DNA from: Cyanobacteria bacterium P01_D01_bin.156
GTDB taxonomy: Bacteria > Cyanobacteriota > Cyanobacteriia > Phormidesmidales > Phormidesmidaceae
Assembly (NCBI GenBank): GCA_039024555.1
Contig: JBCCQQ010000094.1
Span: forward strand, 1 to 17,570
Length of the DNA: 17,570 nt
Reading direction: 5' to 3'
Below are positions 1,059 through 17,452 of this stretch, piece by piece (position 1 is the first letter of the stretch; each line of letters starts with the position of its first letter). The notes beneath the pieces were generated by a model. The model did no database searches, was not told the origin of the DNA, and saw nothing but the letters and a program-made list of their open reading frames with translations. The position numbers and the translations under genes are program-made.

Positions 1059-1895
1059 CTATCCTTGCCAATGGACAATGCGTGAGGAAATGATTCTGAG
1101 TAAGAAGTCAGACACTACGCCAAAAAATCCAATCATGAGAATGCCAACAAACAGACCTTCTACATTAAAAAATGTGCTGGCATCCTGAATGATATAACCA
1201 ATGCCCAGATCGCCTGCCAACAATTCCGCGGCCACTAAAATTCCAAAGTCTACGGATAGGGCCACTCGCATACCGGTAAAAATGCTTGGCAGGGCCGCTG
1301 GCAAAATCACATATAAAAAGATGGCTAGATCGTTAGCCCCTAATGTTCGCGCGGCCAGAATCTTATCCTTCGGGCAAGATTGTACACCAGCCATGGTGTT
1401 TAGCATCACGATTAAGGCCCCAGCATAAAGAATGATTAATACTTTGGAGACTTCACCAATGCCAAACCAGAGGATAAACAGGGTGATAAATGCTAGTGGA
1501 GGAATCGGGCGCAACAGCTCGGTAACAATGTAAAAGGCTGCCCGGACATACTTGTAGTAGCCCATAAGCAACCCGAGGAGAAGCCCCACCATGGTACCGA
1601 TGGTAAAGGCGGTAAAGACCCGTCGAAGACTTCCCAGAACATGGCTTATCAGGGGAGTTCCGGCATAGCCTTTTTGAGTCATGGCCAAGAACTCGGTAAC
1701 AATGCCTGATAAACTGGGGAGAAACAGTTCGTCAACCCAACCCATGCGGGTGGTGAGTTCCCAAAGGATGAGAATTAGGGCAGGAATTGCGATCGCAACG
1801 CAAAACAATATCCCTTTTTCTCGCAATGCCTGGGTTTGGAGATCTTGTCCCTTAAACTTAGGCATACTGTCGGATTTCGACATTTTTAACTGCAT
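1059..1895 (-). CDS. ABC transporter permease, TauC/SsuC (NitT/TauT) family
   Basis: Hydrophobic 278-aa ORF with RPIPPLA...LWFGIGE and EAA-type loop AARTLGA...VILPAALPSIFTGMR; last gene of an SBP-ATPase-permease operon. Confidence 0.92.
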   Translation of the reverse strand: MQLKMSKSDSMPKFKGQDLQTQALREKGILFCVAIAIPALILILWELTTRMGWVDELFLPSLSGIVTEFLAMTQKGYAGTPLISHVLGSLRRVFTAFTIGTMVGLLLGLLMGYYKYVRAAFYIVTELLRPIPPLAFITLFILWFGIGEVSKVLIILYAGALIVMLNTMAGVQSCPKDKILAARTLGANDLAIFLYVILPAALPSIFTGMRVALSVDFGILVAAELLAGDLGIGYIIQDASTFFNVEGLFVGILMIGFFGVVSDFLLRIISSRIVHWQG

Positions 1896-1943
1896 CAGGC
1901 TACTATCCCCTACTCACCAATCATGATCGTCCGGTGGGCCGTG

Positions 1944-2762
1944 CTACTCAATGGCCTTCATTTTTAGATATAGGTCTGTTCGATACTGGTTAAAAGCATC
2001 TGATACTCGATTCATCGCCGTATACCGAGGCTCTGGCAAATGAATCCTAATATCGTGGGCAATGCCTCCCAGGTTGCGATCCAAAATGATAATGCGATCG
2101 CTTAAAAACACCGCTTCCTCAATACTGTGGGTAACAAACAGAATCGCCCCTGCCACCTGTTCATGGAGCTTTAACAATTCCTCCTGTAATCCCTCACGGG
2201 TTTGAACATCAACGGCAGCAAAGGGTTCATCCATTAGCAAAATCTCTGGCTGCACCACCATAGACCGTGCCACAGCGACTCGCTGCCGCATTCCCCCTGA
2301 GAGCTGATACGGATATTTTCGTTCGTTGCCCCGTAACCCCACTAAACCAATAATGGTCTCCACCCGCTTCCGTTTCTCATATTTAGAAATGGATTGAAAT
2401 CGAAACCCAAAACCAATGTTCTGTTCGACGGTCATCCAATCAAACAGAGCATTGCTTTGAAAGACCACGCCGCGTCGAGCAGAAGGTCCTTTAATCTCTT
2501 CCCCTCCATGGGTAACGGTACCTAAGAGGGGCTTATAGAATCCGGCAATCAGATTTAGAATAGTGGACTTGCCGCATCCAGAAGGTCCCAACAACGTCAA
2601 AAATTCCCCCTGTCGGATTTTTAGATCTAAATCCTGAAGAACTAGACGTTTACGGCTGTAGCCGAAGGAAACATCATCTAGGGAGATAATCTCAGCCAGA
2701 GAATTCTCTGGCTGAGTATGACGTTCCAATGAATCAACGGATTGAACAGGAGATTGGGACAT
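1944..2762 (-). CDS. ABC transporter ATP-binding subunit, TauB/SsuB family
   Basis: GPSGCGKST, RGVVFQ, YPYQLSGGMRQR, LLMDEPF, FVTHSIEEAVFLSDR. Confidence 0.95.
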   Translation of the reverse strand: MSQSPVQSVDSLERHTQPENSLAEIISLDDVSFGYSRKRLVLQDLDLKIRQGEFLTLLGPSGCGKSTILNLIAGFYKPLLGTVTHGGEEIKGPSARRGVVFQSNALFDWMTVEQNIGFGFRFQSISKYEKRKRVETIIGLVGLRGNERKYPYQLSGGMRQRVAVARSMVVQPEILLMDEPFAAVDVQTREGLQEELLKLHEQVAGAILFVTHSIEEAVFLSDRIIILDRNLGGIAHDIRIHLPEPRYTAMNRVSDAFNQYRTDLYLKMKAIE

Positions 2763-2779
2763 GGAGCAACAACTAGCGA

Positions 2780-3883
2780 CTACTTCGACTCAAGATATTC
2801 CGCTACATAGGAAGAATTAATTAGCGGTGCTAAGTCTTCTGGGACGCTATCCAAACGGCCTTGGTCAACTAGGAATGTGCCGTATTGCTCATAGGCTTTG
2901 TACAGAGCAGTGTTCTGGGGTTGTCCCGGTGCACCGAGCCAGTCATCCGAGAGCTGATCCTCCATTGCCACCACAGTTGAGCCTTGACGACCTACCATAG
3001 CGCCAAACTCTTCTGGAGTAAGGTTTAGACGCTCAGCCTCCCACTTTTGGCCAGATTTAGGATCGGCCAAATAGTCTTTCTGAGCCATATCCCAAGCTTC
3101 CATAAACTTGGTCATCACCTCAGGATTTTCTTCAGCAAACTCTTTGCGCACGGCCCATAGGGCTACGGCATAGGCACCAATGGATTTGGCTGTTGCAATA
3201 TCTTTTCCGCCTAGCTCATTGAGCTTACCTGCGGCAGGTTCCCAGGTCCAAGCCGCGTCAATTTTGCCTGCGGAGAATGCCGCTGCCATTTCTGATGGCT
3301 TGAGGTTAACTAAGTTGACATCACTTTGCGCAATCCCCGCCTGATCGATGGCTGCCAGTAAAGAATGGTGCCCAGAGGTACCGATGGTCACTCCGATAGT
3401 CTTACCCTGCAAACTAGCCACATCTGGGGCCGCATCCCCGGCAATTAAACGCTCCGCTGTTAAAGGTGCATGGTCCAACAGAACCACCTCAATATCGATG
3501 CCTGTGGCAAACGCTGTTAATGAGGGGAAGGGGAAGAACCAAGTGATATCCACCTCATCCGCTGCCAGGGCGGGCACCATTGCGCCACCGGATGAATAGG
3601 GGGCTAGCTCGACATCTAAACCAACTTTCTCAAAATATCCTTCCTTTGCGGCCACCATGGTGATGTTGTTGATGTCACCAGTTTGGAAGCCCACCCGCAC
3701 TTTAGGTAAATCTTTTGCTGGTGCGGCAGCAACTTCGGTAACGGCCTCTGTTGTTTCTTCAACGGCGTCAGAAACCGTTTCTGCAGGCGCACACCCGATG
3801 GCTAAGGCTAGGGAACAAGCGGTTAAACCACTTAATGTAAAAAACTTACGTCGGCTGAAAAAATGCGTAACTGATCGCTGCAT
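2780..3883 (-). CDS. ABC substrate-binding lipoprotein, TauA/SsuA-like, predicted Tat-exported
   Basis: ATG at 3883 preceded by GGAGG (the ORF-track TTG at 3895 overlaps this RBS). N-terminal SRRKFF twin-arginine motif and LAIGC lipobox; SsuA/TauA-like motifs (LQGKTIGVTIGTSGH, GKIDAAWTWEP). Confidence 0.88.
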   Translation of the reverse strand: MQRSVTHFFSRRKFFTLSGLTACSLALAIGCAPAETVSDAVEETTEAVTEVAAAPAKDLPKVRVGFQTGDINNITMVAAKEGYFEKVGLDVELAPYSSGGAMVPALAADEVDITWFFPFPSLTAFATGIDIEVVLLDHAPLTAERLIAGDAAPDVASLQGKTIGVTIGTSGHHSLLAAIDQAGIAQSDVNLVNLKPSEMAAAFSAGKIDAAWTWEPAAGKLNELGGKDIATAKSIGAYAVALWAVRKEFAEENPEVMTKFMEAWDMAQKDYLADPKSGQKWEAERLNLTPEEFGAMVGRQGSTVVAMEDQLSDDWLGAPGQPQNTALYKAYEQYGTFLVDQGRLDSVPEDLAPLINSSYVAEYLESK

Positions 3884-3973
3884 GATTGCCTCCAATCCCT
3901 ACAAATGCCGATATGTGTTAGTGGCGATACCTCGCACGTTAGGAAGTACTTTGACAGCTGCAGAGATTTGGAT

Positions 3974-3989
3974 TGTATCTTCTAGCACA
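3974..3989. promoter_or_regulatory. Putative NtcA box (one mismatch) in the divergent SBP/amidase promoter region
   Basis: TGTA-TCTTCTAG-CACA versus consensus tGTA-N8-TACa. On the minus strand it reads GTG-N8-TAC, with a weak -10-like CAAAGT 21 nt downstream, toward the SBP gene. Confidence 0.5.
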
Positions 3990-4015
3990 AACCTGCTTTT
4001 ACGGTGGCATCTATC

Positions 4016-4289: not shown

Positions 4290-5690
4290 ATGGCGAAGCA
4301 GCTAGATATTTCCCTAACGATTTCTTCTCTTAATCAGCAGTATGCCCAAGGAACACTGACTCCCGTACAGGTGGTTAAAGCAATTCTCACAGCCCTAGAA
4401 GAACGTGGAGATGATGGCATTTGGATCTATACAACATCTGAAGCCGCATTAATTGAGCGGGCTACGATGCTGACAACTATGTCAGCTAGTCAGCGATCGC
4501 AACTGCCGCTATGGGGTATTCCCTTTAGCATTAAAGACTGTATCGATGTGGCAGGGCAGCCCACATCTGCTGGATGTCCCGGCTTTAGCCATACTGCTGA
4601 ACATACGAATCCAGCAGTGCAAAAGCTGTTAGATGCAGGGGCCATCCTCATTGGTAAAACCAATCTAGACCAGTTTGCAACAGGGCTGGTGGGGGTGCGC
4701 ACCGGTTATCGAATACCCCACAATGCGTTTTCAGCGGACTATATTTCAGGCGGGTCTAGTTCCGGTGCGGCCCTTTCCGTTGCTAATGGTCTGGTTTCCT
4801 TTGCCATTGGTACCGATACCGGGGGGTCGGGGCGAGTCCCCGCAGGGTATAACAACATTGTGGGGCTAAAACCCACGAAAGGATTGTTGAGCACCCGCCA
4901 CATGGTTGCGGCCTGTCGTACCCTAGACTGTCTTTCCGTTTTTGCCCTGACGGCAACGGATACTGAGCATGTTTTTAAGGTAGCCCAAGAATTTGATGAT
5001 GAGAATCCCTACTCTCGTTCAGGGCAGAATTCTCCTGTAAAGACCTACGAACCCAAACACCCGTTTCGCTTTGGTGTTCCCCGGGCCGATCAGCGGGCAT
5101 TCTTTGGGAATGCCGATGTTAAAGCCCAGTATGAAGACGCTGTCAAAACCCTTACTCAGTCGGGGGGAACCTGTATTGACATTGACTATGAGCCCTTTTT
5201 AGAAACCAATAATTTGTTATTTAACGGCCCTTGGGTCGCCGAGCGTTATGTCTCGGTGGGTGATTTTGTCGAAACAGATCCGGAGTCAGTCTTTCCAGTT
5301 GTCCGTGAGATTATTCTGAAGTCTAAACAGCTAACAGCTGTTGCCACATTTAAGGGACTGTATGCACTAGAACAACTAAAACGCACGATTCAACCCCTTT
5401 GGGATGATATTGATTGTTTAGTGGTGCCAACAACCGGAACCACCTATCGCCTCGATGAGATTGCGTCAGCTCCGATAAAGCGCAACAGCGATATGGGATA
5501 TTACACTAATTTTGTTAATTTGTTAGATTTGTGTGCGATCGCAGTCCCTAACGGTTTTCAATCTAACGGTATTCCCACAGGCATCACATTCATCGCCCCT
5601 CCCTATGGGGAACATTATTTAGTCGGATTGGGAGATGCCTTTCACCGCACTAAGACTGAGAAACTGGGAGCCACAGCATTTGATGTGTGA
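4290..5690 (+). CDS. atzF: Allophanate hydrolase-like amidase (AtzF family), amidase domain only
   Basis: Amidase signature: IKD (catalytic Lys), GKTNLDQFATGLVG, SGGSSSG, GTDTGGSGRVPA (cis-Ser/Ser). AtzF-typical GPWVAER and MGYYTNFVNLLDL are present. The protein ends at KLGAT, with no C-terminal domain. The symbol reflects family only; the substrate may differ. Confidence 0.8.
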   Translation: MAKQLDISLTISSLNQQYAQGTLTPVQVVKAILTALEERGDDGIWIYTTSEAALIERATMLTTMSASQRSQLPLWGIPFSIKDCIDVAGQPTSAGCPGFSHTAEHTNPAVQKLLDAGAILIGKTNLDQFATGLVGVRTGYRIPHNAFSADYISGGSSSGAALSVANGLVSFAIGTDTGGSGRVPAGYNNIVGLKPTKGLLSTRHMVAACRTLDCLSVFALTATDTEHVFKVAQEFDDENPYSRSGQNSPVKTYEPKHPFRFGVPRADQRAFFGNADVKAQYEDAVKTLTQSGGTCIDIDYEPFLETNNLLFNGPWVAERYVSVGDFVETDPESVFPVVREIILKSKQLTAVATFKGLYALEQLKRTIQPLWDDIDCLVVPTTGTTYRLDEIASAPIKRNSDMGYYTNFVNLLDLCAIAVPNGFQSNGIPTGITFIAPPYGEHYLVGLGDAFHRTKTEKLGATAFDV

Positions 5691-5859: not shown

Positions 5860-5892
5860 TCTTATCGAATCAGAGGGTTGATAAAAAGCATC

Positions 5893-5908
5893 TGTAAATA
5901 GAGATACA
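5893..5908. promoter_or_regulatory. NtcA box upstream of the second ABC operon
   Basis: Perfect TGTA-AATAGAGA-TACA, 57 nt before the ATG at 5965. No clean TAN3T at the canonical distance (TTAAAT at N23). Confidence 0.7.
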
Positions 5909-5964
5909 GATACATCCGTGATGTCATCGATTAAATAGAGCAAATCGATACGGGTCATTCTGTT

Positions 5965-7533
5965 ATGAATTCTACTTACGCTCGATTCAAAAGATTTTCT
6001 CTTCCAGGTGTTTTAGCCCTCTCTGCTGCTATTGTTGCATCATGTTCAGGCCCTTCTGGTACTGAATCGGCAGATTCTACGTCTTCTGGTGGCAGTGGTG
6101 AAGTGATCCGTATTTCTATCGGAACACAAGACCAGGTAATCAATACGGCTGTTGGCGGTGCCACCGTACGCGAACTGGGCTTACTGGAAAAACATTTGCC
6201 GACAACGGGTAAATATGAGGGTGTTGAATATGATATTCAATGGTCTAGCTACACATCGGGACCGCCAATCACCAACAAAATGTTAGCCAATCAGATCGAT
6301 ATTGGCTTAATGGGTGATTTCCCAGCAGTTATTAATTTGATCAAGTTCCAAGAGGAAGTAGAAGGCGTTACGTCTACATTTATTGGCACCCTAGCCTACA
6401 GCCCCAATGGAGCCGGTAATGCGGTAGTGGTTCCCAAGGATAGCGATGCCACCTCTTTAGCCGATCTAAAGGGAGGTTCTGTATCGGTACCCTTCGGTTC
6501 TGCGGCCCACGGCATGGTCTTAAAGGCATTAAGTGATGCTGGAATTGATCCAGAAAAAGATGTCAAGCTGATTAGTCAGGCTCCTGAGGTTGGCGGCACC
6601 AGTTTGCGTACTGGCCAAATCGATGCCCACGCTGACTTTGTTCCCTTTGGTGAACTTTTTCCCTTCCGAGGCTTTGCTAAAAAGATCTTTGACGGTGCCC
6701 AAACAGGCGTGCCCACATTACACGGTATTGTTGTTCGTTCTGATTTTGCAGAAGAGCATCCAGAGATTGTTCAAGCCTATCTCCAGGCAATGCTGGAAGC
6801 AAATCAGACATTCCAGGAAAGTCCTGAAGAAATTTCAGCCCAAATCGAGGAGTGGTCGGGCATCGAGAAAGAAGTGGTCTATATGTTCCTTGGCCCTTCT
6901 GGTTTACAACCCATTAACCCCAGTATTGGTGAAGTCCAGCTAGAGGCCCTAAAAAATAGTATTGCCACGCTAATTAGCCTGGGTAAAATTGAGTCCCCGG
7001 TTAATCCTGAAGATGTTACCGGATGGGTCGATGAAAGCTTCTTGAAAACAGCCATGGATAACCTGGGCCTGAACTATGACGAAGTAATCGAAACCGGTGA
7101 AACCTACGTGATTACGGGGAATGACGCTCTAACGAATGAACCCATTGAAGAGCCCAAGATGGCGGCTCAGCTGTGGATTCAAGAAGAGCCCACAGTGACT
7201 AACTTTGCCACCATTCCCAATATGATCAAAAAGCTCAATGAGCTACAGGCTGATGGAAAAGCCTCTGATGTGATCTTTGTTCACGATCGCAACAAAGGCT
7301 GGAAGCTCTTTGCTGAAAATTCTCACTACGTTAAAAATGGAGATGAGATCTCGGCCTTTTTGTTAGAGTCTGATGCTAAGGCGTTTGCGGCTGAATCTGG
7401 TGGCGAGGTAACCACCTTTAAGAGTTTGCTGCAGACCTACGCCAATGGACCTCAGCCAGCTCGCATTAGCCGGTTAACAATGGAGGATTTAAGACAGGCA
7501 ATGTTGGATGCAGTCCCTGCACTAGCCGGTTAA
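5965..7533 (+). CDS. ABC substrate-binding lipoprotein (NitT/TauT, AsfC-like) with a C-terminal NosL-like extension
   Basis: Lipobox IVASC followed by a Ser/Gly linker; SBP motifs SGPPITNKMLANQIDIGLMGDFP, VPFGSAAHG and HPEIVQAYL; ~140 extra C-terminal residues; first gene of an SBP-permease-ATPase operon. Confidence 0.9.
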   Translation: MNSTYARFKRFSLPGVLALSAAIVASCSGPSGTESADSTSSGGSGEVIRISIGTQDQVINTAVGGATVRELGLLEKHLPTTGKYEGVEYDIQWSSYTSGPPITNKMLANQIDIGLMGDFPAVINLIKFQEEVEGVTSTFIGTLAYSPNGAGNAVVVPKDSDATSLADLKGGSVSVPFGSAAHGMVLKALSDAGIDPEKDVKLISQAPEVGGTSLRTGQIDAHADFVPFGELFPFRGFAKKIFDGAQTGVPTLHGIVVRSDFAEEHPEIVQAYLQAMLEANQTFQESPEEISAQIEEWSGIEKEVVYMFLGPSGLQPINPSIGEVQLEALKNSIATLISLGKIESPVNPEDVTGWVDESFLKTAMDNLGLNYDEVIETGETYVITGNDALTNEPIEEPKMAAQLWIQEEPTVTNFATIPNMIKKLNELQADGKASDVIFVHDRNKGWKLFAENSHYVKNGDEISAFLLESDAKAFAAESGGEVTTFKSLLQTYANGPQPARISRLTMEDLRQAMLDAVPALAG

Positions 7534-7856: not shown

Positions 7857-8714
7857 ATGGCCAGTACCCTTCCTCAAACTCGGGTTCGGAATCGCAGATC
7901 TAACCCAGCGATATACCAAACACTAAAAGCATTTATTCTGTCAGGTCGTTCTACCAGGCGATTGATCGCTCTGGTACTCTTTTTTGGAATCTGGCAAATT
8001 CTATGCATGATTAGCTTTAAGTTTTTTATTAACTTTCAGCTGATTCCTTCTCCATGGGAAGTTGCTAAAGCGACGGTTGATTTCTTTACCACTGACCCCT
8101 GGGTGCATATTCGCTCTAGCGTCGTTCGAGTATTAGTTGGATTTGCCGTAGCCTCTGTACTAGGAACTATCTTGGGGATCTTGATTGGGTGGTTTCACAT
8201 TGCTGAAGACTTGTTAATGCCATCGTTGGAATTACTGCGCCCGATTCCTGCCGTTGCTTGGATTCCCCTAGCAATTCTCATGTTTCCTAATGCTGAAACA
8301 GGGATGATTTACATCACCTTTATTGGGGCGTTTTTCCCAGTTCTCATCAGTACCATTCGGGCTGTTGAGAATATTCTGCACGATATTGTTTTAATTCGTG
8401 TAGGGCAGTGTTTAGGAGCTAATCAATGGCATGTCTTTAAAGATATTGTTATTCCTGGAGCATTACCCGGTATTGCGGGTGGTTTAACCATTGGTATGGG
8501 CAACGCCTGGTTTTGTTTGGTCACTGCCGAGATTTTGGCAGGGCGCTATGGCGTAGGGTACATAACCTGGGAGTCCTATGTCACATCGAACTATCCTCCC
8601 ATTGTCATGGGCATGTTACTCATTGGCCTGATGGGCGCCATCAGCTCCTGGGCTGTAGGACGGAGTACGGCCGCCTTAATGCCCTGGCGCGTGATTAAGA
8701 AGCAGGATGTTTAA
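7857..8714 (+). CDS. ABC transporter permease, NitT/TauT family
   Basis: LRPIPAVAWIPLAILMF and LGA...FKDIVIPGALPGI motifs; multiple hydrophobic segments. Confidence 0.93.
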   Translation: MASTLPQTRVRNRRSNPAIYQTLKAFILSGRSTRRLIALVLFFGIWQILCMISFKFFINFQLIPSPWEVAKATVDFFTTDPWVHIRSSVVRVLVGFAVASVLGTILGILIGWFHIAEDLLMPSLELLRPIPAVAWIPLAILMFPNAETGMIYITFIGAFFPVLISTIRAVENILHDIVLIRVGQCLGANQWHVFKDIVIPGALPGIAGGLTIGMGNAWFCLVTAEILAGRYGVGYITWESYVTSNYPPIVMGMLLIGLMGAISSWAVGRSTAALMPWRVIKKQDV

Positions 8715-9568: not shown

Positions 9569-10753
9569 ATGGTTCCCCCCAGCTTGAACGAAAATATTTC
9601 TAATAGAAATCCTTTGGGACGTCTATTGGGTTCAGCTCGGTATCTAAATAAACTTCATGGCATATTTTTTGTGAGTTTATTTAGCCTAGCTGCCTATCAT
9701 CTATCTTCCTTTGAAATTCTGAAGAGCCTTAAAATGAGTCCAGTTATTGTTGGACTTATTCTGGGGGCTTTTTATGCAAACAGTTTTGGCAGAGATTTGC
9801 CCTCCAAATGGGTGCCTGGTATTGTTTTTTGTAAAAATAAAATCCTTAAAATAGCCATTATATTTTATGGTGTAAAGCTAACTTTTCAAGATTTATCTGC
9901 GGTGGGTCTAGCTGGGCTTTTATCTTGTTTTTTTATCGTCATTAGTACCTTTTTTATTGCCTTTTTGCTAGGCAAATATTGTTTTAAGCTAGATCATGAC
10001 CTCTCGATTCTAATTGCTGCAGGAAGCTCTATTTGTGGTTCAGCCGCCATACTAGCGACAAGTTCAATTTTAAAGAGCAAATCCTATAAAAACATTATTG
10101 CTGTCGCGATTACGTTTCTACTTGGCACTTTGGGGATGTTGCTGTTCCCTCTGGTTTACAGGCTGGGATGGTTTCAGGTGAATGAAACTATATTTGGCGT
10201 TTTTCTGGGTATTACCCTGCCATCTGTCGGCAATGTAGCCGCAGCAGGAGCGGCTGTTTCTGAGGTAACCGTGCAAAGTGCCATCATTGTAAAGATGATT
10301 CGGGTCATGATGCTAGTTCCTTTTTTGTTGCTTTTGGGACTATACAGGTCAAGAGGGGACGCTTCTGATTCAGGAGATGCATCAATCCGTGGCAAAGGCT
10401 CGTCAGTATCTTTGCCAGAAAGCCATACCGGAGTGCAGTACCGTCCCAGAAACTATATGGGGGTAATCTCTGGGACGCCGACTATTCAACAAAAGAGTAA
10501 AGCTATTGTTCCTTGGTTTGCTATTTTTTTTATAGGTGCGATCGCAATAAATTCACTGTTACAACCGCCCCTTGGAGTTGTTAACTTCATTAACCATGTC
10601 GACAAATTCTGTTTGACCATGGCAATGACGGCTCTGGGTATTGAAACAAGCGCCCATAAAATTCAGGGAGTCGGTCTTAACCTGATTTACCTAGGTCTTG
10701 TGGTGTCGGCTTGGCTAATTGTTGCTGGCTTACTCATCACTTATTTTATATAG
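9569..10753 (+). CDS. YeiH/UPF0324 (PSE, putative sulfate exporter) family membrane protein
   Basis: Family motifs ILKIAIIFYG, LIAAGSSICGSAAI, IVKMIRVMML, VPWF and LTMAMTALG; about 10 hydrophobic segments. Confidence 0.85.
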   Translation: MVPPSLNENISNRNPLGRLLGSARYLNKLHGIFFVSLFSLAAYHLSSFEILKSLKMSPVIVGLILGAFYANSFGRDLPSKWVPGIVFCKNKILKIAIIFYGVKLTFQDLSAVGLAGLLSCFFIVISTFFIAFLLGKYCFKLDHDLSILIAAGSSICGSAAILATSSILKSKSYKNIIAVAITFLLGTLGMLLFPLVYRLGWFQVNETIFGVFLGITLPSVGNVAAAGAAVSEVTVQSAIIVKMIRVMMLVPFLLLLGLYRSRGDASDSGDASIRGKGSSVSLPESHTGVQYRPRNYMGVISGTPTIQQKSKAIVPWFAIFFIGAIAINSLLQPPLGVVNFINHVDKFCLTMAMTALGIETSAHKIQGVGLNLIYLGLVVSAWLIVAGLLITYFI

Positions 10754-10766
10754 CCCCTGGCATCAG

Positions 10767-12827
10767 CTAGAAGGACTTGATAGCCGTTTCCAAAAACTCT
10801 GTCTGTATCCAGTTATTTGTATCAATATTTCCTAGTTCCTCGTTGCCTGGAATGATTTGGAGTTGTTTAATATGCTCCGTAATCCAGTCAGTTTTAATTT
10901 GCGTTGCTGGGAAAAACAAACCAGTGTGATTAGGTTGCTGGTAATCAAGGGTCTTTGCCACAATTTCAGGAGCTAGACTAACCCAGTTACTAACCAAGGA
11001 AAGCGCGCTAGGTGTGGTTACATACCAATGTTGAGCTGCAATTAAGGCTTTAAGGTAAGCAACGACAATTTCAGGATGGTCGTCTATTAAAGCTTTTCTG
11101 GCTACAATGCCATGAAATGTTGGTAGGCCCGTCATATCAGGAGTATCCACCAAACGACGAAACTTACCACGGTGGCTGGCAATTTCATGGAGAGGGGCAA
11201 AATAGGCATAGCCGTCCGCCTCGGCATTTTGCGGAGTGAGCCGATTAATGCTCAGGTTATTGATCGAAGTAAGCGTTACATCCTGCAACAGATTTGCTTG
11301 GGACAAAGTACGCATCACCATCCCGTGAGCTGATGAAGCAAAGGGAACGGCAATAACGCGATGACGTAAATCATCCAAACTGCTTAGGGGTGACCGACCA
11401 GGAACAATAATGGTATTACCTGTACCATCTGGATTGCTGGCAACAAAGCTAACTAATCGGGTTTTGGTTAAGGATTCATTTTCCGGAGAAATACCACTTA
11501 ACAACAAGGGATAATCCCCTAAGATGCCAATATCTAATTCTTGAGATTGCAAACCTGCTACGATGGGAGCCCCTGATGTAAAATCTCTCCATTTAATTCT
11601 ATAGTCAATGTTGCTGTATTGCCCATCCCGAGGGAGAAAATGCTCCAATAGCCCTAAGCGTTGAATAATGCTCCCAGCGGTCACTGTTTGGATTGTTTTA
11701 TTTTGGGTGCCAATGGCCAGGGTTATGGTTTCAGTCAGCGTTTTAGAACGTTGAATAGCAATGCCCGGAGATCTTAAATGAACCTTCCTAGCATCCTTAG
11801 CAAAAGGTGATGGAAAAGAACTTGCAGATATTCCATCAGAGTATTTTGTCGTTGTTGAGCTTGGTTTTCGGAGACGTCGTCTACGCTCAGATTCCCTAGA
11901 AACAAGCTGAATAAACTGCTGTACCGGTTCAACAGATATTGTTTTAGCCCCGCGTTTTTGAGATTGCCGATGGAGCATCTTGGAAAGTTGCTTTGGCATC
12001 AGCATAAATAATTGATAGTCAAAGGCAAATTCCTGCAATGGAATTTCGACTAGCAATTTGGTTTGGCGCTCTGTTATTAGCTGCATGCTTGAGCCAAACC
12101 CTAAATAATGGCCCTGGGTTAAGAATGTATTCAATAATCCAGCTGTGTGAACGACTTCCTGGTGAGGAAAGTCAGAGATTTGCATTCCCAGTTCGGATAG
12201 TCGTCCCTCCAATGCCAGACGCTCAGAGGTGCCGGTGGCTGGGAATACCCAAAATTCTGATTTAAGCTCCTGCAAACTAAGCCATTTACAATGAGCCAAA
12301 CGATGGTCAGCGGCCACCATTAGAAAATATTGAAAGCTGCCAACAGGAGATGAGGTAATCTCGTTAAAATCACTAAGATTTGTTTCAGAAAACCCAATTT
12401 CTACATCACCTATGGTGATTGCTTGATGTAGCTGCTGAACCGTATCAAATGGCAAGCATTCTAACTGGATATTGGGATATTCCTGACGATATCTAAATAA
12501 AAGATGGGGTAGCCATCCACGGGCAATACTGTGGGTACAGCCAATCTTTAGATGGCTAAATTTTCCCTGTTTTATTTCGTTGATTTTATTGAGTAAATGG
12601 CTTTCTAAAGCGATAAGTTTTGGCCCTTCTTCTAACAAGTAATCGCCCACAGGCGTTAGTTCTATTTTGCGCCCAAGCCGATAGAAAAGCTCCGTGTCTA
12701 GGCTAGCTTCCAGTGCCTTTATCTTCGCACTCACCGCAGGCTGGGTCAGATTTAGCACATCTGCCGCTTCTGTAAAACTCAGGTGGCGAGCCACCTCTAG
12801 AAAAACTTTAAGCTGATAAAACTCCAC
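10767..12827 (-). CDS. LysR-family regulator fused to a C-terminal ABC substrate-binding-like domain
   Basis: LysR HTH (EFYQLKVFLEVARHLSFTEAADVLNLTQPAVSAKIKALE...LFYR), LysR effector domain, a basic/Ser-rich linker, then ~320 aa homologous to the SBP at 5965. GTG at 12827 gives a typical LysR N-terminus; the ORF-track ATG at 12875 is an alternative start. Confidence 0.88.
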   Translation of the reverse strand: MEFYQLKVFLEVARHLSFTEAADVLNLTQPAVSAKIKALEASLDTELFYRLGRKIELTPVGDYLLEEGPKLIALESHLLNKINEIKQGKFSHLKIGCTHSIARGWLPHLLFRYRQEYPNIQLECLPFDTVQQLHQAITIGDVEIGFSETNLSDFNEITSSPVGSFQYFLMVAADHRLAHCKWLSLQELKSEFWVFPATGTSERLALEGRLSELGMQISDFPHQEVVHTAGLLNTFLTQGHYLGFGSSMQLITERQTKLLVEIPLQEFAFDYQLFMLMPKQLSKMLHRQSQKRGAKTISVEPVQQFIQLVSRESERRRRLRKPSSTTTKYSDGISASSFPSPFAKDARKVHLRSPGIAIQRSKTLTETITLAIGTQNKTIQTVTAGSIIQRLGLLEHFLPRDGQYSNIDYRIKWRDFTSGAPIVAGLQSQELDIGILGDYPLLLSGISPENESLTKTRLVSFVASNPDGTGNTIIVPGRSPLSSLDDLRHRVIAVPFASSAHGMVMRTLSQANLLQDVTLTSINNLSINRLTPQNAEADGYAYFAPLHEIASHRGKFRRLVDTPDMTGLPTFHGIVARKALIDDHPEIVVAYLKALIAAQHWYVTTPSALSLVSNWVSLAPEIVAKTLDYQQPNHTGLFFPATQIKTDWITEHIKQLQIIPGNEELGNIDTNNWIQTEFLETAIKSF

Positions 12828-13006
12828 AGTAAAATGCCTACCCAGCCATTTAATAATTGGTGATTTCTTAACCATGTTCTGAGTAATAAGTACTCAGTTT
12901 ATAATTTTTAAAAAATTGTATTAGCCAAACCCTTGCCTAAGGCTTAATTGTCAGTATTACTTAACCAATTAGAATTTCTTTTTTCTTGGTATTCACATTT
13001 TTTATG

Positions 13007-13049
13007 AGTATATAAAATAAATGAATCCAAAAACTGTACCCCTCGATAC
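13007..13049 (-). promoter_or_regulatory. NtcA-activated (class II-type) promoter for the LysR-SBP gene
   Basis: Minus strand reads GTA-TCGAGGGG-TAC (13049-13036), N23, TATACT (13012-13007), matching GTA-N8-TAC-N22/23-TAN3T. Confidence 0.7.
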
Positions 13050-13164
13050 TAAAAGTCTTGAGCCAATCACTGACTCTCTTTAAGATAGTGACAGCAGGAA
13101 AAAAGGTTGAGGCTGTAATTTTGTTGACTAGGGCTATACTCTCTTTTGAAATTTTGGGCCAAGT

Positions 13165-13179
13165 ATAAGTTTTTGATAG
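13165..13179. promoter_or_regulatory. Possible LysR-type operator upstream of the flavoprotein operon
   Basis: ATA-AGTTTTTGA-TAG (T-N11-A) in the divergent lysR/flavoprotein intergenic region. Weaker match than copies A and B, in AT-rich context. Confidence 0.35.
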
Positions 13180-13296
13180 CAACTGCCTCTTTAAGGTTTT
13201 AAATTCGATTCAAACTTCAAAGATGTTAAGTCCTGCTGTGTTGTCAGCTTTTTTTCGGTCAGGTTTGATTACCCAAGTAGACGTGAGGGATTGTGC

Positions 13297-15000
13297 GTGA
13301 AGACTCAGCATCTGCAAACAGATTTTTTAGTGATTGGTGGTGGCACCGCTGGTACGATGGCAGGCATCAAAGCCAAGCAGGCTAATCCAGATGCCGATGT
13401 TTTGATTTTGGAGAAAGCGAATATTCGTCGCAGTGGCGCGATCGCAATGGGTATGGATGGCGTTAACACCGCTGTTATTCCCGGTAACTCTACACCTGAG
13501 CAGTACGTGAGAGAGATTACTATTGCCAACGACGGTATTCTAAACCAGAAGGCGGTCTATCAAACCGGTCGCTGGGGTTTTGAGGTAATTCAAGAGCTAG
13601 AGAGTTGGGGTGTAAAATTCCAAAAAGACAACGAAGGGAATTACGACCTAAAGCAGGTGCACCGAGTGGGTAAATATGTGTTACCCATGCCTGAAGGAAA
13701 AGACCTCAAGAAGATTCTTTCTCGTCAGGTAAAACGCCATAAAGTGCGGGTCACTAATCGAGTTATGGCCACTCGGGTCATGGTTAAAGAAGGTCGCGTG
13801 ATCGGAGCCGTTGGTTTTGATGTGCGGAAGGGAGACTTTGTTGTTATCCAAGCCAAGGCCGTTGTTCTGTGTACTGGAGCCTGTGGACGTCTTGGATTGC
13901 CTGCCTCGGGTTATCTCTATGGTACCTATGAGAATCCCACGAATGCTGGCGATGGTTACTCCATGGCTTACCACGCTGGGGCAGAACTTACCAACATTGA
14001 ATGTTTTCAGATTAATCCCCTCATTAAGGATTACAACGGTCCTGCTTGCGCCTATGTGGCCAGTCCCTTTGGGGCCTACACCGCTAATGCGGAAGGTAAT
14101 CGCTTTATTAGCTGCGATTACTGGAGTGGCCAGATGATGCTGGAAACTTGGAAAGAGTTGAACTCAGGTAAGGGGCCAGTACATCTTAAGATGTATCACC
14201 TGGATGATGATACCATTTCCGAAATTGAACGAGTCTTATGGGCCAACGAGCGTCCTAGTCGAGAGCGTTTCCACGAGGGACGAGGAGAGAACTACCGTAC
14301 CCACGGCGTGGAGATGAACATCTCCGAAATTGGTCTGTGTAGTGGTCACAGTGCCTCGGGTGTTTGGGTCAATGAAAAAGCAGAAACAACTGTGCCAGGT
14401 CTTTATGCGGCTGGAGACATGGCCAGTGTGCCCCACAACTATATGATTGGGGCATTTGTTTCCGGGCGTTTATCCGGCATCAATGCTATGGATTATGTGA
14501 AAGGGCTGGGGCACGTAGAGCCAGACCCTGAGTTTTTAGCAGCGGAAAAAGCTCGGATTTACGCACCGTTAGATCGTCCCGATGGCATTCCCCACACCCA
14601 GGTGGAATATAAGCTACGGCGATACGTCAATGATTATCTGCAGCCACCCAAGTCTCCCACTAAGATGGACATTGGTCTGGCCTACTTTGAAAAGTACTAT
14701 CAGACCCTAGATTTAATGGGAGCTAGGGATCCCCACGAACTGATGCGCTGTATGGAAGTCCACTTTATTCGCGACTGTGCCGAAATGGCGGCACGGGCCT
14801 CTTTATACCGAAAGGAGAGCCGCTGGGGACTGTATCACTATCGACTAGATTATCCTGAGAAGAATGATACGGAATGGTTCTGCCATGCCAACTTAAGGAA
14901 GACAGAGGCCGGAGAGATGGAAATGTTTAAGCGTCCTGTAGCTCCGTATATTGTAGAAGTAGATCTGCAACAGGAAGTTTACGATGTCGCTGTAAGGTAA
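13297..15000 (+). CDS. FAD-dependent oxidoreductase, APS reductase alpha-like (AprA/AsfA-type; SDH/FRD flavoprotein superfamily)
   Basis: VIGGGTAG FAD fold; EKANIRRSGAIAMGMDGVN resembles the AprA N-terminal motif (xKAxxxRSGAVAQG); TTVPGLYAAGD; RKESRWGLYHYRLDYP. Lacks the SdhA/FrdA RSH covalent-FAD motif. GTG at 13297 follows a GAGGGA RBS (the ORF track uses TTG 13291). Confidence 0.85.
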   Translation: MKTQHLQTDFLVIGGGTAGTMAGIKAKQANPDADVLILEKANIRRSGAIAMGMDGVNTAVIPGNSTPEQYVREITIANDGILNQKAVYQTGRWGFEVIQELESWGVKFQKDNEGNYDLKQVHRVGKYVLPMPEGKDLKKILSRQVKRHKVRVTNRVMATRVMVKEGRVIGAVGFDVRKGDFVVIQAKAVVLCTGACGRLGLPASGYLYGTYENPTNAGDGYSMAYHAGAELTNIECFQINPLIKDYNGPACAYVASPFGAYTANAEGNRFISCDYWSGQMMLETWKELNSGKGPVHLKMYHLDDDTISEIERVLWANERPSRERFHEGRGENYRTHGVEMNISEIGLCSGHSASGVWVNEKAETTVPGLYAAGDMASVPHNYMIGAFVSGRLSGINAMDYVKGLGHVEPDPEFLAAEKARIYAPLDRPDGIPHTQVEYKLRRYVNDYLQPPKSPTKMDIGLAYFEKYYQTLDLMGARDPHELMRCMEVHFIRDCAEMAARASLYRKESRWGLYHYRLDYPEKNDTEWFCHANLRKTEAGEMEMFKRPVAPYIVEVDLQQEVYDVAVR

Positions 15001-15006
15001 CTATTG

Positions 15007-15040
15007 AACCTACCCTGGAGCCTCTCCAAAGAAGGGGAGA
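15007..15040. repeat. Degenerate single-arm copy of the REP-like element
   Basis: AACCTACCCTGGAGCCTCTCCAAAGAAGGGGAGA resembles the right arm at 980-1010 (AACCCACCCCGGAGCCCCTCCCTGGAGGGGA). Confidence 0.65.
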
Positions 15041-15139
15041 AAACATTAGGTTTGGTTTTAAGTACGGCATCGAACAGTTCTTTTAGCTAAATGTACTTCT
15101 GGTCTGTCCCAATCTGTTCTTTATCTGAGAAAGTTATCT

Positions 15140-15367
15140 ATGGCTTTAACAACCCAGCGTGTAGACGTTCCCGTCATTGTCGACGAATCTAAATGTCTCG
15201 AAAAATGTGTCGCTTGCATTGAAGTGTGTCCTCTGGATGTCTTGGTGAAAAATCCAGAAACCGGTAAAGCCTACATGAAATATGACGAGTGTTGGTTCTG
15301 TCTCCCCTGTGAGAAGGAATGCCCCACCAATGCCATCACCGTTCAGATTCCATTTCTGTTGCGTTAG
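15140..15367 (+). CDS. 2x[4Fe-4S] ferredoxin, AprB/AsfB-like partner subunit
   Basis: CLEKCVACIEVCP and ECWFCLPCEKECP; the Trp in ECW matches the AprB-type motif; 75 aa, directly downstream of the flavoprotein. Confidence 0.9.
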   Translation: MALTTQRVDVPVIVDESKCLEKCVACIEVCPLDVLVKNPETGKAYMKYDECWFCLPCEKECPTNAITVQIPFLLR

Positions 15368-15381
15368 GGAGACTATTTACC

Positions 15382-16362
15382 ATGGCTAATGCTGAACTGG
15401 ATCCAGAGGTAGTGCAATGGGTAGAAATGTTGGGCTCGGAGGATCTTGGCGATCGTCTTGTGGCGGCCAAAGCCCTGCAACATTTGGGTGACGAGGATGC
15501 TATCGATGCGCTGATGCAGAGTTTAAATGACACAAGCGCTAGGGTTCAAGAGATTGCTGTTACAGCCCTATGGGAAATGGCTAATCCGGTAGTGGTGCCT
15601 GCCCTGTTGGACTGTCTGAGTTCTAACCATGAGCCAGATGTGCGCACAGAAGCTCTGTCGGCGCTCAAAGAACTGGTCTCCCCTGATGACTTACTGAAGC
15701 TGTTGGATGCGATCCAAGTGGATGACGAGAATATGCAGCTGAATGTGTTAGTTCTGCTGCGAAAAATCCACGATGCCCAGGCATTGCCCTATGTGATGCC
15801 TTTCTTTGAATCGGGAAATCCCACCCTGCGAGAAGCCTCTATTGTTACCCTGCGATATCTAAACCAGGTGGTGCGGTGTGAACCAGCGTTGGCTTTAGCT
15901 AAGGATACTAACGACGATGTGCGACGTTCGGCAATTTTGACCCTGGGCTACCTAAGCGATGAGCAAGTGGTACCGATGCTGTGCGATGCGATCGCAAACG
16001 ATTCCGATTGGCAGGTGCGCCGTAATGCAGCTCAATCCTTGGATTTACATGCCACTGAAGCAGCGATTCCAGCCCTGACCCAAGCCATGGGAGATGACCA
16101 CTGGCAGGTGCGCAAGTTTACGGCCCGTGCGTTGCAAAAGGTAGCTAATGATGAAACTATCCCCAACCTAATCAAGGCCCTCTCCGATGAATATTCGGAT
16201 GTGCGACGGGATGCGGCCATTGCCCTAGGCAATCTAGGTAATCCCGAGGTGCTACCGGCCTTACAACAAACCCTAGATGACCCGGATAGGGACGTTCAAA
16301 TCTTTTCCCAGCGCGCCATTCAAAAAATTCAGGATCAGCTGACAGAGACCTCTAATGCCTAA
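15382..16362 (+). CDS. HEAT-repeat (PBS lyase HEAT-like) protein
   Basis: About 10 repeats of the L.D.D..VR..AA.ALG pattern (DSDWQVRRNAAQSL, DDHWQVRKFTARAL, DEYSDVRRDAAIALG). ATG 15382 follows GGGAG; the ORF-track start at 15319 overlaps the ferredoxin. Confidence 0.9.
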   Translation: MANAELDPEVVQWVEMLGSEDLGDRLVAAKALQHLGDEDAIDALMQSLNDTSARVQEIAVTALWEMANPVVVPALLDCLSSNHEPDVRTEALSALKELVSPDDLLKLLDAIQVDDENMQLNVLVLLRKIHDAQALPYVMPFFESGNPTLREASIVTLRYLNQVVRCEPALALAKDTNDDVRRSAILTLGYLSDEQVVPMLCDAIANDSDWQVRRNAAQSLDLHATEAAIPALTQAMGDDHWQVRKFTARALQKVANDETIPNLIKALSDEYSDVRRDAAIALGNLGNPEVLPALQQTLDDPDRDVQIFSQRAIQKIQDQLTETSNA

Positions 16363-17452
16363 CCACAATTCCCCGTTTGGTCGTAGTAGCATACCGGCTG
16401 CTGAGACAGTGCCTGAAAACCCCATTGTTGCCGCGCGTAAACAGGCTGCTATTTATTGCTTAAAACAAGTAATAGAGCCCACCCTTGACAACAATATTGT
16501 GGATTTGGGGATGGTGCGCAACCTACGGATAGTAGACAATTACGTCTACTTAAGGCTGTATGTGGGCTCTCATCAACGGGCTCTAAAGGACCAGGCCCAG
16601 TTAACCCTAGGGGATTTAGACTGGTGCCAAAAAGCCTATATACAGGTTTGCACCATTCCCGGAGTACGCACTACCTTGGCGGTCTCTAGCGGTAAAGGCG
16701 GGGTGGGAAAATCCACCACCGCTGTAAACTTAGCCGCTGCCCTGACAAAAACGGGGGCAAAAGTGGGGATATTGGATGCAGATATCTACGGCCCTAATGT
16801 GCCCCAGATGTTGGGGTTATCTCAAACCGCTGTTGAGGTAATCGATACCCCAGAGGGGCAACGGTTTAAGCCCATGGAGGCCCATGGCATAAAAGTAATG
16901 TCGGTGGGGTTACTCGCAGAGGCCGATCATCCATTAGCGTGGCGCGGCCCCGTACTCCATAAAGTGATTACCCAGTTTATTCAGGATGTGGACTGGGGAG
17001 AGCTGGATTATCTCTTAATTGATTTACCGCCAGGTACGGGAGATGCCCAAATTACGATTATCCAAGAGAGTCCTATTTGTGGTGTGGTCATGGTAACAAC
17101 GCCACAGCAGGTAGCGGTTTCCGATGTGCGGCGCAGCATTTACATGTTTCGCCAGGTAGGGGTGCCGGTACTGGGGCTGGTGGAAAATATGAGCTATTTG
17201 ATCTGTAGCTGTTGTGGAGAGCGCACCTCCATTTTTGGTAGTGGGGGCGGAGAACAAATGATGGCAGAACTGAAGGTGCCTCTGCTAGGGCAGGTGCCGA
17301 TTGATCCGCAGATTTGTCAGAGAGGCGATACAGGTCAGCCGTTACCTTTAGCAGATGCACAGGCTCCTTTATCAAAGGTGTTTGAGGCCATTGCCATAGG
17401 GTTGAATAGCACTTTTTTACCAGTGTTATCTCAATCGGTACTTTCCCTGTAA
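16355..17452 (+). CDS. mrp: Mrp/ApbC/NBP35 family Fe-S cluster carrier ATPase with an N-terminal DUF59-like domain
   Basis: SGKGGVGKST, DADIYGP, WRGP, DLPPGTGD, VTTPQ and ENMSYLICSCC (CxxC). Overlaps the HEAT gene end by 8 nt, suggesting translational coupling. Confidence 0.92.
   Translation: MPNHNSPFGRSSIPAAETVPENPIVAARKQAAIYCLKQVIEPTLDNNIVDLGMVRNLRIVDNYVYLRLYVGSHQRALKDQAQLTLGDLDWCQKAYIQVCTIPGVRTTLAVSSGKGGVGKSTTAVNLAAALTKTGAKVGILDADIYGPNVPQMLGLSQTAVEVIDTPEGQRFKPMEAHGIKVMSVGLLAEADHPLAWRGPVLHKVITQFIQDVDWGELDYLLIDLPPGTGDAQITIIQESPICGVVMVTTPQQVAVSDVRRSIYMFRQVGVPVLGLVENMSYLICSCCGERTSIFGSGGGEQMMAELKVPLLGQVPIDPQICQRGDTGQPLPLADAQAPLSKVFEAIAIGLNSTFLPVLSQSVLSL

Follow-up and report, generated by a model that had tools for sequence, protein, structure and literature searches.

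We analyzed a gene cluster on contig JBCCQQ010000094.1 of Cyanobacteria bacterium P01_D01_bin.156, in which a flavoprotein resembling AprA of adenosine 5'-phosphosulfate (APS) reductase is encoded with a small ferredoxin, a HEAT-repeat protein and an Mrp-type iron-sulfur (Fe-S) cluster carrier, next to two sulfonate-type importers, an amidase, a putative sulfur-anion exporter and a LysR-type regulator. The window, by which we mean the whole stretch of DNA that was analyzed, is the entire contig of 17,570 bases, from a genome of 6.6 Mb in 149 contigs; since it ends where the contig ends, the cluster may extend past it on both sides. Genes were called from a listing of open reading frames (ORFs) together with Pfam and NCBIfam profile scans of the window. 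An earlier note on this DNA had proposed that the cell imports a compound carrying nitrogen and sulfur, keeps the nitrogen and exports a sulfur oxyanion, and every gene that it had named was recovered at or near the position assigned to it. The features are as follows.

1059-1895, minus strand: ATP-binding cassette (ABC) permease of importer 1, NitT/TauT type (PF00528, 89.6 bits; best NCBIfam model TauC, 174 bits, cut-off of 342 not reached)
1944-2762, minus strand: ABC ATPase of importer 1 (PF00005, 116 bits; SaoA and TauB-like models under their cut-offs)
2780-3895, minus strand: binding protein of importer 1 (sbp1), SsuA/TauA-like (NMT1, 86.6 bits; SsuA_fam 152 and TauA 152 bits, both under cut-off)
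4290-5690, plus strand: allophanate-hydrolase-like amidase, 466 amino acids (NF006043, 586 bits, cut-off 487)
5894-5907: NtcA-type box GTAAATAGAGATAC, then 22 nucleotides and ATTAAAT at 5930-5936; importer-2 ATG at 5965
5965-7533, plus strand: binding protein of importer 2 (sbp2), 522 amino acids (SsuA_fam, 127.5 bits, under cut-off of 163.5)
7857-8714, plus strand: ABC permease of importer 2 (PF00528, 57.1 bits; best NCBIfam model nitrate permease NtrB, 119 bits, under cut-off)
8731-9555, plus strand: ABC ATPase of importer 2 (PF00005, 117.8 bits)
9569-10753, plus strand: membrane protein of the YeiH/PSE family, putative sulfate/anion exporter (PF03601, 246.5 bits, over cut-off)
10767-12875, minus strand: LysR regulator with an extra NMT1-like domain, 702 amino acids (HTH_1 75, LysR_substrate 88, NMT1_2 28.6 bits)
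13007-13086: divergent promoter region with NtcA-type box GTACCCCTCGATAC at 13036-13049
13297-15000 (ORF opens at 13291), plus strand: AprA-like flavin adenine dinucleotide (FAD) flavoprotein, 567 amino acids (NF006131, 1000.8 bits, cut-off 587)
15140-15367, plus strand: ferredoxin with two [4Fe-4S] clusters, 75 amino acids (Fer4_7, 31.2 bits)
15382-16362, plus strand: HEAT-repeat protein (HEAT_2, 168 bits)
16355-17452, plus strand: Mrp/ApbC-type Fe-S cluster carrier (PF10609, 328.6 bits; ApbC model 292, under cut-off of 348)

The module in other genomes

A scan of species-representative genomes for the flavoprotein gave at least 594 confirmed relatives, and the best 80 loci were examined and sorted into layouts by tblastn with the window proteins and by profile scans. 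A core of importer, flavoprotein, ferredoxin and HEAT-repeat genes is syntenic in all 80 loci, which come from Cyanobacteria and Actinobacteria. The same gene sets thus surround the flavoprotein in these relatives; the contiguity that the earlier note had stressed is not a matter of chance, and a lack of co-occurrence in other genomes, which would have spoken against its proposal, is not what we found. Type A comprises the window, L001-L021, L045, L046 and L053 (25 loci) and, with plasmid L082 of Leptolyngbya BL0902, amounts to 26 occurrences; its layout consists of a binding protein of 510-520 amino acids with permease and ATPase, a LysR-sensor regulator in divergent orientation, and the series flavoprotein-ferredoxin-HEAT-Mrp. 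Type B (Nostoc-type) comprises 25 loci of Nostocales and Oscillatoriales in which a short, unrelated SsuA-like protein (~25% identical) lies directly upstream of flavoprotein-ferredoxin-HEAT-Mrp, with luciferase-like monooxygenases in 7 of the 25 neighborhoods, acyl-CoA-dehydrogenase-type enzymes in a few and further SsuA proteins close by. Type C comprises 31 actinobacterial loci with the order GntR-ferredoxin-binding protein-permease-ATPase-flavoprotein, the HEAT repeats being fused to the flavoprotein. Across the 80 loci, the Mrp gene follows the HEAT gene in most cyanobacterial cases.

The layouts differ in their exporters. A YeiH gene is present in 15 of the 25 type A loci, several of the remaining ones being cut by contig ends, and a TauE/SafE gene lies beside it in L010, L011, L016, L017, L019 and the BL0902 plasmid, whereas type B has neither exporter (0/25) and type C has them in 4 of 31 loci (YeiH in three, TauE in one). 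The survey of homolog neighborhoods for YeiH that the earlier note had called for thus separates type A (15/25) from type B (0/25), and the sulfur-anion exporters travel with the subtype that bears the promoter boxes described below, not with the Nostoc-type. The window protein scores just under the cut-off of the second family model (TIGR00698, 222.1 bits against 232.6). It is ~30% identical to the YeiH in the same position in the closest relatives, L001 and L003, and 52% identical to that of the distant L020, which suggests that two YeiH subtypes have been exchanged.

The flavoprotein family is very large and spans at least three phyla: more than 7,000 clusters at 90% identity reach E ≤ 1e-20 among 8,000 candidates, a count that includes broader relatives. 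Records of plasmids and chromids from Paraburkholderia, Cupriavidus, Acinetobacter and Acidithiobacillus show the order GntR-flavoprotein-ferredoxin-(binding protein-permease-ATPase)-HEAT at 59-65% identity. Within cyanobacteria the gene is patchy: of 401 genomes sampled, 23 have it, with 15 of 156 genera represented. In the window's genus it exceeds the cut-off in 8 of 13 genomes (control genomes, 0/14), and among 301 sampled genomes of the family to which both Prochlorococcus carriers belong, 2 have it. The best named relative of the window flavoprotein is that of Adonisia turfae, at 95% identity. A tree of the flavoproteins groups the Actinobacteria in a single clade and places type B inside a type A grade, the Ilyobacter outgroup sitting on a branch of ~10 changes per site. 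The contig L026, filed under a Rhizobium metagenome-assembled genome, encodes a flavoprotein that shares 83% identity with its cyanobacterial counterparts and groups with them in the tree; the contig's assignment is probably a binning error.

Some features of the window lie outside the module. Positions 1-882 hold the C-terminal ATPase half of an MsbA/HepA-like ABC exporter gene cut by the contig start, and positions 883-1188 hold an ORF of 101 amino acids without family matches; neither recurs beside the module in relatives. An Rfam scan of the window (E ≤ 1) gave no riboswitch and one spurious match, to mir-612 (31.9 bits against a gathering score of 100). The sole listed sequencing run that holds the window DNA is labeled as a marine metagenome and may be the source sample; the listing names no RNA run.

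The flavoprotein, its partners and the amidase

The flavoprotein likely starts at GTG 13297, which is preceded by GAGG at 13285-13288, and most of its homologs have the same length of 567 amino acids. In a search of the PDB its closest solved relatives were the alpha subunit of MtPAPSR, a reductase of 3'-phosphoadenosine 5'-phosphosulfate (PAPS) from Methanothermococcus thermolithotrophicus (8a8o, 237 bits, E 2.7e-69, full length), and AfAprA, the AprA of A. fulgidus (2fja, 149 bits), whereas structures of succinate dehydrogenase, fumarate reductase and L-aspartate oxidase reached only ~64-70 bits (1knp, the L-aspartate oxidase NadB, 64). The NCBIfam model that it passes, NF006131 (PRK08275), is named fumarate reductase/succinate dehydrogenase flavoprotein subunit, which is generic. 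To compare active sites, we aligned 84 family members with one sulfonucleotide reductase as outgroup, an Ilyobacter enzyme encoded between cysC and cysDN, and checked the AfAprA residue numbering against a printed alignment; the five positions considered (Asn74, Tyr95, Trp234, Arg265 and His398) are ones that we take to be active-site residues. Asn74 and His398 are invariant in all 84 members and kept in the outgroup. All 84 members, by contrast, carry Leu in place of Arg265, Tyr in place of Trp234 and Glu or Asp in place of Tyr95, and the outgroup has Arg, Trp and Tyr at the same positions. The region of MtPAPSR Lys120-Arg121-Ser122 reads Gly-Lys-Tyr-Val in the window, after an insertion of five residues, and most of the 84 members have GKY or GSY as the triplet at this position.

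These comparisons leave very little probability to the explanation that the flavoprotein is an assimilatory or dissimilatory APS/PAPS reductase, and we rejected it. Its best solved relatives are indeed MtPAPSR and AprA, and its ferredoxin partner is AprB-like; yet it does not pass the AprA models (TIGR02061, 185.3 bits against 641.75; NF005331, 316 against 557), the Ilyobacter enzyme beside cysC/cysDN keeps the three residues that are changed throughout the family, and the MtPAPSR positions Lys120-Arg121-Ser122, which are reported to confer PAPS traits in the accessible part of PMC10322725, read Lys-Tyr-Val. Gene context points the same way, with no sat, cysC, qmo or aprM among the window ORFs in the Pfam scan, importer genes in their place, and two canonical CysH-type genes in the genome. 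Because Arg265 is Leu in all 84 members, the flavoprotein is not expected to be an APS reductase. By sequence comparison it shares its fold with APS/PAPS reductases, over the full length and with a two-[4Fe-4S] ferredoxin partner as in MtPAPSR (8A8O) and AprAB (2FJA, 3GYX), and its predicted substrate is not a sulfonucleotide. The flavin-sulfite chemistry is probably shared as well; for MtPAPSR, FAD N5 has been proposed to attack the PAPS sulfur and form a sulfite adduct (PMC10322725, in the part available). With a 34-row alignment as input, AlphaFold2 gave a flavoprotein model whose mean predicted local distance difference test (pLDDT) score was 64, with residues 194-354 below 50; it was too poor for pocket analysis.

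The ferredoxin aligns with AprB (3gyx_B, 42.3 bits, 166 amino acids) and the MtPAPSR beta subunit (33.5 bits, 104 amino acids) over the two-cluster core only. With 75 amino acids it is shorter than both and lacks the tail of AprB; its identity is 88-99% across cyanobacterial loci and 55-60% in Actinobacteria. The HEAT-repeat protein appears to belong to the flavoprotein enzyme, since the two are fused in Actinobacteria (in L078, an 899-amino-acid protein combines FAD_binding_2 and HEAT; the fused-type model NF010374 gives 914 bits), and it is probably a subunit or scaffold of the flavoprotein. A predicted complex of flavoprotein and HEAT protein scored 0.33 (runs 0.33, 0.62 and 0.01) against 0.00 for the best of three controls, with contact agreement of at least 27% and partner pLDDT of at least 87 across the runs; 116 of 157 solved complexes attain the mark applied to such predictions, as do 2 of 215 mismatched pairs. 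This prediction lends weak support to the pairing.

The binding protein sbp2 consists of an SsuA-like core (PDB matches TauA, 60.6 bits, and SsuA, 59.5 bits) and a C-terminal NosL-like extension, and its orthologs in actinobacterial operons are 32-38% identical. The extension spans ~150 amino acids (window 7075-7533, residues ~370-522), weakly resembles the NosL Pfam family with E 1.4e-4 (E 3.2e-7 in L021), and is also found in actinobacterial and proteobacterial orthologs of 475-507 amino acids; its Atlas feature score, 0.81, counts as no more than a lead. The divergent pairing of sbp1 with the amidase recurs in L011, and an sbp1 relative of 26-27% identity adjoins the amidase in L045 and L046.

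The amidase resembles the amidase domain of allophanate hydrolase. It passes a second allophanate-hydrolase model in addition to NF006043 (TIGR02713, 549.5 bits against 511), an equivalog-level match, aligns over the whole amidase domain with AtzF (4cp8, 441 bits) and the Granulibacter enzyme GbAH (4gyr, 408 bits), and keeps the catalytic motifs GGSSSG and TDTGGSGR. It differs in covering positions 5-453 of the 600 of NF006043 only, so that the C-terminal AH_C domain is absent, and in being paired with a sulfonate-type importer. A further difference lies in the motif LL[Y/F]xGPWVAER, where both aligned hydrolases have Tyr but all 7 cluster copies and 118 of the 120 closest homologs have Phe; this is the position of Granulibacter Tyr299, while that of Arg307 is kept. 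We take Tyr299 and Arg307 to be substrate-anchoring residues of the Granulibacter enzyme; a literature search on them found nothing bearing on the cluster. An amidase-only 50-kDa fragment of AtzF is reported to be active in the available part of PMC3944691. The available part of a second study describes an amidase-signature enzyme that hydrolyzes acetoacetamide-N-sulfonate, an N-acyl sulfamate, to sulfamate, and proposes that a TauE-like exporter removes that sulfamate (PMC10413263).

Seven of the 25 type A loci carry the amidase (the window and six others at 41-72% identity). It lies directly after mrp in L002, L005 and L021, is divergent from the sbp1 ortholog in L011, and is inside the importer operon in both Prochlorococcus loci (L045 and L046). 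The genome has no urea carboxylase over cut-off; the best match to TIGR02712 reaches 530 bits against 1303.85 and covers the biotin-carboxylase part only. Two stand-alone AH_C genes (G000:C24:26126-26506 and G000:C31:54291-54761) were considered as the missing domain of the amidase and rejected, being on other contigs and in unrelated settings, one after a Bmp/PnrA-type ABC transporter and the other beside an M20 peptidase. In L021, M20, AH_C and xanthine/uracil permease genes follow the amidase. Downstream of the amidase in L005 (14176-20030) come genes for an FGE-sulfatase-like protein, CobW and nitrile hydratase (beta, alpha and accessory), which hints that the amide substrate can also derive from a nitrile. 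Co-occurrence of amidase and flavoprotein among the 401 cyanobacterial genomes is uninformative: 15 of the 19 other genomes with an amidase match carry full-length hydrolases of 606-615 amino acids and belong to a single genus, and four of the 19 (G206, G270, G311 and G404) also hold the flavoprotein.

Promoter boxes and the LysR-sensor regulator

The nitrogen regulator NtcA binds the consensus GTAN8TAC, placed ~22 nucleotides before the -10 element in class II promoters. The window holds four matches to this consensus, no more than chance would give (mean of 2.15 in shuffled sequence, with four attained in 36 of 200 shuffles). Two are intragenic (6358 and 8655) and two, the boxes at 5894-5907 and 13036-13049, lie in promoter regions, and only the two promoter boxes are conserved in relatives. 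The NtcA-like boxes of the earlier note therefore hold up as conserved promoter elements but not as a raw count. Upstream of sbp2, an exact GTAN8TAC occurs 69-94 nucleotides before the start codon in 10 of 11 type A regions including the window, Prochlorococcus L045 being the only one without it. An ATTAAAT sequence begins 20-22 nucleotides after the box, a -35 element is absent, and only GTA and TAC are constant from locus to locus, the eight bases inside them varying. The inner bases at 5898-5905 of the window and those of L001 and L002 are exact reverse complements (AATAGAGA versus TCTCTATT) with the orientation of the flanks kept; the difference is a tiny inversion that preserves GTA...TAC.

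In the spacer between regulator and flavoprotein, 18 of 24 regions hold GT[AG]N8TAC at one and the same position (the exact form in 11, GTG for GTA in 7); two more are off by one other base and L019 is doubtful. A TAN3T hexamer follows the box on the regulator strand and is conserved as a plus-strand AGTNTA block, with a spacing of 23 nucleotides in the window and L016; in the window this is TATACT at 13012-13007 on the minus strand, facing the regulator gene. Facing the flavoprotein operon on the plus strand are TTGAGC (13058-13063) and, 17 nucleotides on, TAAGAT (13081-13086). Both boxes are present on the Leptolyngbya BL0902 plasmid, which was retrieved from a different collection. Type B has no conserved box, 6 of 25 upstream regions holding one at scattered positions. 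The genome itself encodes NtcA (384.6 bits, cut-off 245), and the region upstream of its glnA reads GTAN8TAC-N22-TAGGAT. Genome-wide counts of GTAN8TAC (1021) and of its composite with TAN3T (177) are near or below a rough expectation by hand (~1,600 and ~200) and are unusable as evidence. The survey of homolog neighborhoods for nitrogen regulators, also called for by the earlier note, thus found both promoter boxes conserved at the spacing of NtcA class II promoters, with GTAN8TAC 20-23 nucleotides before the -10 element and no -35 element at sbp2. The arrangement departs from such promoters in the divergent region, where the box on the flavoprotein side is near -50, and in the GTG of seven relatives. 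We read the conserved boxes as putative NtcA sites, which the cluster's own regulator could use instead.

The flavoprotein is predicted to have a leader of ~200 nucleotides (window 13087-13296), which has no Rfam match. We considered a conserved leader RNA here and set it aside as unlikely, because box and start codon are anywhere from 77 to 378 nucleotides apart among relatives.

The regulator combines a LysR helix-turn-helix, a LysR effector domain and a full periplasmic-binding-protein-like domain that is paralogous to sbp2. It is conserved at 43-73% identity in most type A loci and at 27-29% in the two Prochlorococcus loci. Because its sensor domain (residues 360-702) is 33% identical to sbp2 (E 1e-58) and 22% identical to sbp1 (E 7e-8), the regulator most likely senses the compound imported by importer 2, as far as sequence similarity can tell. 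This raises the possibility that the palindromes are operators of this regulator rather than NtcA sites, so that the cluster answers to its substrate only. The boxes do stand at exactly the two promoters that a pathway regulator would control, including its own divergent one, the box on the flavoprotein side precedes a full -35/-10 promoter in the manner of an upstream activator site, and the genome-wide counts are unremarkable. On the other hand, the boxes have the NtcA consensus, mostly flanked as tGTA...TACa, and not the LysR pattern T-N11-A, they are placed before the -10 elements in the class II manner with no -35 element at sbp2, glnA of the same genome is arranged alike, and conservation is confined to the outer triplets. 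We consider operators of the own regulator an unlikely but serious explanation.

Proposed nitrogen retention with sulfur export, and competing explanations

We propose that the window carries a nitrogen-controlled variant of a widespread module of importer and AprA-like enzyme, in which nitrogen is kept and sulfur exported, and we see the chances of this being correct as evenly balanced. Under nitrogen shortage, NtcA would turn on the importer-2 operon and the LysR regulator gene, as the conserved boxes suggest, and the sensor domain of the regulator would detect the imported compound and activate the flavoprotein operon. The flavoprotein, with its ferredoxin and HEAT partner and with Fe-S clusters matured by Mrp, would then use low-potential electrons to cleave the X-SO3 bond of an imported small anion, the flavin N5 attacking the sulfur and sulfite being released. 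The nitrogen would be retained and the sulfur oxyanion would leave through YeiH, joined by TauE in relatives, as the co-traveling gene sets suggest. Importer 1 and the amidase may supply an amide precursor, from which a further ammonium would be freed. A reductive direction is suggested by ferredoxin-reducing enzymes beside the module, namely a ferredoxin and a 2-oxoacid:ferredoxin oxidoreductase in Isoptericola (L056:15988-18176) and FdxA with an FAD oxidoreductase of 1153 amino acids on an Acidithiobacillus caldus plasmid (L084:10102-14035). The logic of excreting sulfur, and the pairing of a NitT/TauT importer with an exporter, are shared with taurine/sulfonate dissimilation clusters that have TauZ/YeiH or TauE; the window differs in that its catalytic step is assigned to an uncharacterized flavoenzyme. 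As the earlier note had observed, the window offers none of the usual enzymes for such compounds: the Pfam scan of its ORFs gave no TauD, luciferase-like monooxygenase (SsuD-like), aminotransferase or Xsc-type domain, and thus no Tpa, Xsc, TauXY, TauD or SsuD.

A competing explanation is plain sulfur scavenging, in which the cluster would be the cyanobacterial counterpart of asfRABC and free sulfite from an organosulfonate, with the amidase and importer 1 as unrelated neighbors. The gene set matches the asf cluster as described in the available part of a review (PMC4267179), and the asfRABC genes of Pseudomonas putida S-313 likewise have adjacent genes for the reductase AsfA and the small ferredoxin AsfB, a sulfonate-type binding protein, AsfC, an ABC transporter and a LysR regulator, AsfR. 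AsfA and AsfB are named as a reductase-ferredoxin pair in Cupriavidus CH34, in the part of PMC2864759 available, and homologs of the window flavoprotein at 60-65% identity are found in genera with reported asfA (Variovorax 60.2%, Cupriavidus 64.6%, Paraburkholderia 63.9%), the likeness to AsfA being one of genus overlap and description only. Nostoc-type and Cupriavidus loci also adjoin FMN-dependent (flavin mononucleotide-dependent) monooxygenases and SsuA-like proteins. Against plain sulfur scavenging, the conserved GTAN8TAC promoters are found only in the type A subtype, which also has the sulfur-anion exporters that type B lacks, the amidase lies within the Prochlorococcus importer operon, and the type A hosts include Prochlorococcus and other marine forms. 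Seawater sulfate is plentiful, and scavenging of sulfur would therefore make little sense in such hosts. The asf cluster is tied to sulfate limitation and arylsulfonate sulfur, whereas the window has NtcA-like promoters, exporters, an amidase, a regulator with an extra sensor domain, and HEAT and Mrp genes in its unit. Our judgment is that plain sulfur scavenging is improbable, though still to be reckoned with.

Several observations weigh against nitrogen retention with sulfur export. According to the available part of PMC4267179, asfA mutants can no longer grow with arylsulfonates as their source of sulfur, and sulfate limitation induces the asf cluster; since arylsulfonates hold no nitrogen, these genetics count against a nitrogen role. 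Enzymes 83-86% identical to that of the window occur in Nostoc and Microcoleus amid luciferase-like monooxygenases, acyl-CoA-dehydrogenase-type enzymes and extra SsuA proteins, which are sulfur-scavenging surroundings. The import-keep-export proposal of the earlier note is thus backed by a conserved unit, conserved boxes and exporters that track the boxed subtype, but not by the settings of near-identical enzymes elsewhere. Its description of the enzyme as AprAB-like stands for the fold, Asn74 and His398 and fails for the catalytic Arg; because the Arg265, Trp234 and Tyr95 positions are changed, sulfite release can be put forward only conditionally, and the X-SO3 cleavage step, suggested by homology, is weakened by the lost Arg. 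Among the promoters, L020, L021 and L053 have no box in the divergent spacer (24 regions compared), the position near -50, beside a good -35 element, is not the canonical one for NtcA, and no box precedes the amidase (0/5 regions) or sbp1 (0/2 regions). The amidase is absent from 18 of the 25 type A loci, and the functions of YeiH and TauE are those of their family annotation. Our literature search found no abundant natural N-S substrate documented, and nothing bearing on the cluster for sulfamate as nitrogen source or for sulfamate in precipitation or groundwater. It likewise found nothing on the cluster for Prochlorococcus, taurine, NtcA and sulfonate, and no defined reaction for AsfAB or the flavoprotein family. 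Sulfamates are not mentioned in the available part of the review PMC4267179, and PMC5913679 covers the sulfonate transporters of Nostoc in general.

A substrate from which ammonium and sulfite are both formed would reconcile the nitrogen and the sulfur-scavenging settings, and we hypothesize that an N-sulfonate such as sulfamate is the simplest fit. A more specific version, which we regard as rather doubtful, is that the flavoenzyme is a reductive N-S lyase (sulfamate/N-sulfonate reductase): N5 would attack the sulfur of H2N-SO3- or R-NH-SO3-, and the family-specific Glu at the AprA Tyr95 position would protonate the leaving amine, giving ammonium and sulfite in a single two-electron step. The Phe-type amidase could then act on carbamoyl-sulfamate, the sulfo-analog of allophanate, or on N-acyl sulfamates and supply sulfamate. 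Such a lyase, if real, would explain near-identical enzymes in marine nitrogen scavenging with sulfur export and in soil sulfur scavenging. Alternatively, the flavoprotein might be an amine dehydrogenase like L-aspartate oxidase that acts on taurine, cysteate or a similar compound, with ammonium kept and the organosulfonate exported by YeiH/TauE. The superfamily does include L-aspartate oxidase, the binding proteins resemble TauA and SsuA, loss of the AprA Arg265 allows other chemistry, and TauE-family proteins have also been linked to organosulfonate export. But the similarity to PAPS and APS reductases (237 and 149 bits) is far above that to NadB (64), the ferredoxin-reducing neighbors in L056 and L084 imply a reductive direction, and because no sulfite would form, this reaction fails to explain the Nostoc-type sulfur-scavenging settings. 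We therefore rate an amine dehydrogenase as very unlikely.

What is new here is the apparently nitrogen-controlled subtype; the AsfAB/AprA-like module itself is known but uncharacterized. Type A is, to our knowledge, the first setting of this module under apparent nitrogen control with sulfur export, and this combination would narrow the substrate to a compound that carries both nitrogen and sulfur. The substrate question can be tested in the culturable Leptolyngbya sp. BL0902 or Nodosilinea nodulosa PCC 7104. Reductive cleavage of X-SO3 in a non-nucleotide substrate, if true, would be a new route into the sulfur cycle, and the compound would provide marine cyanobacteria, rare Prochlorococcus lineages among them, with a new source of nitrogen.

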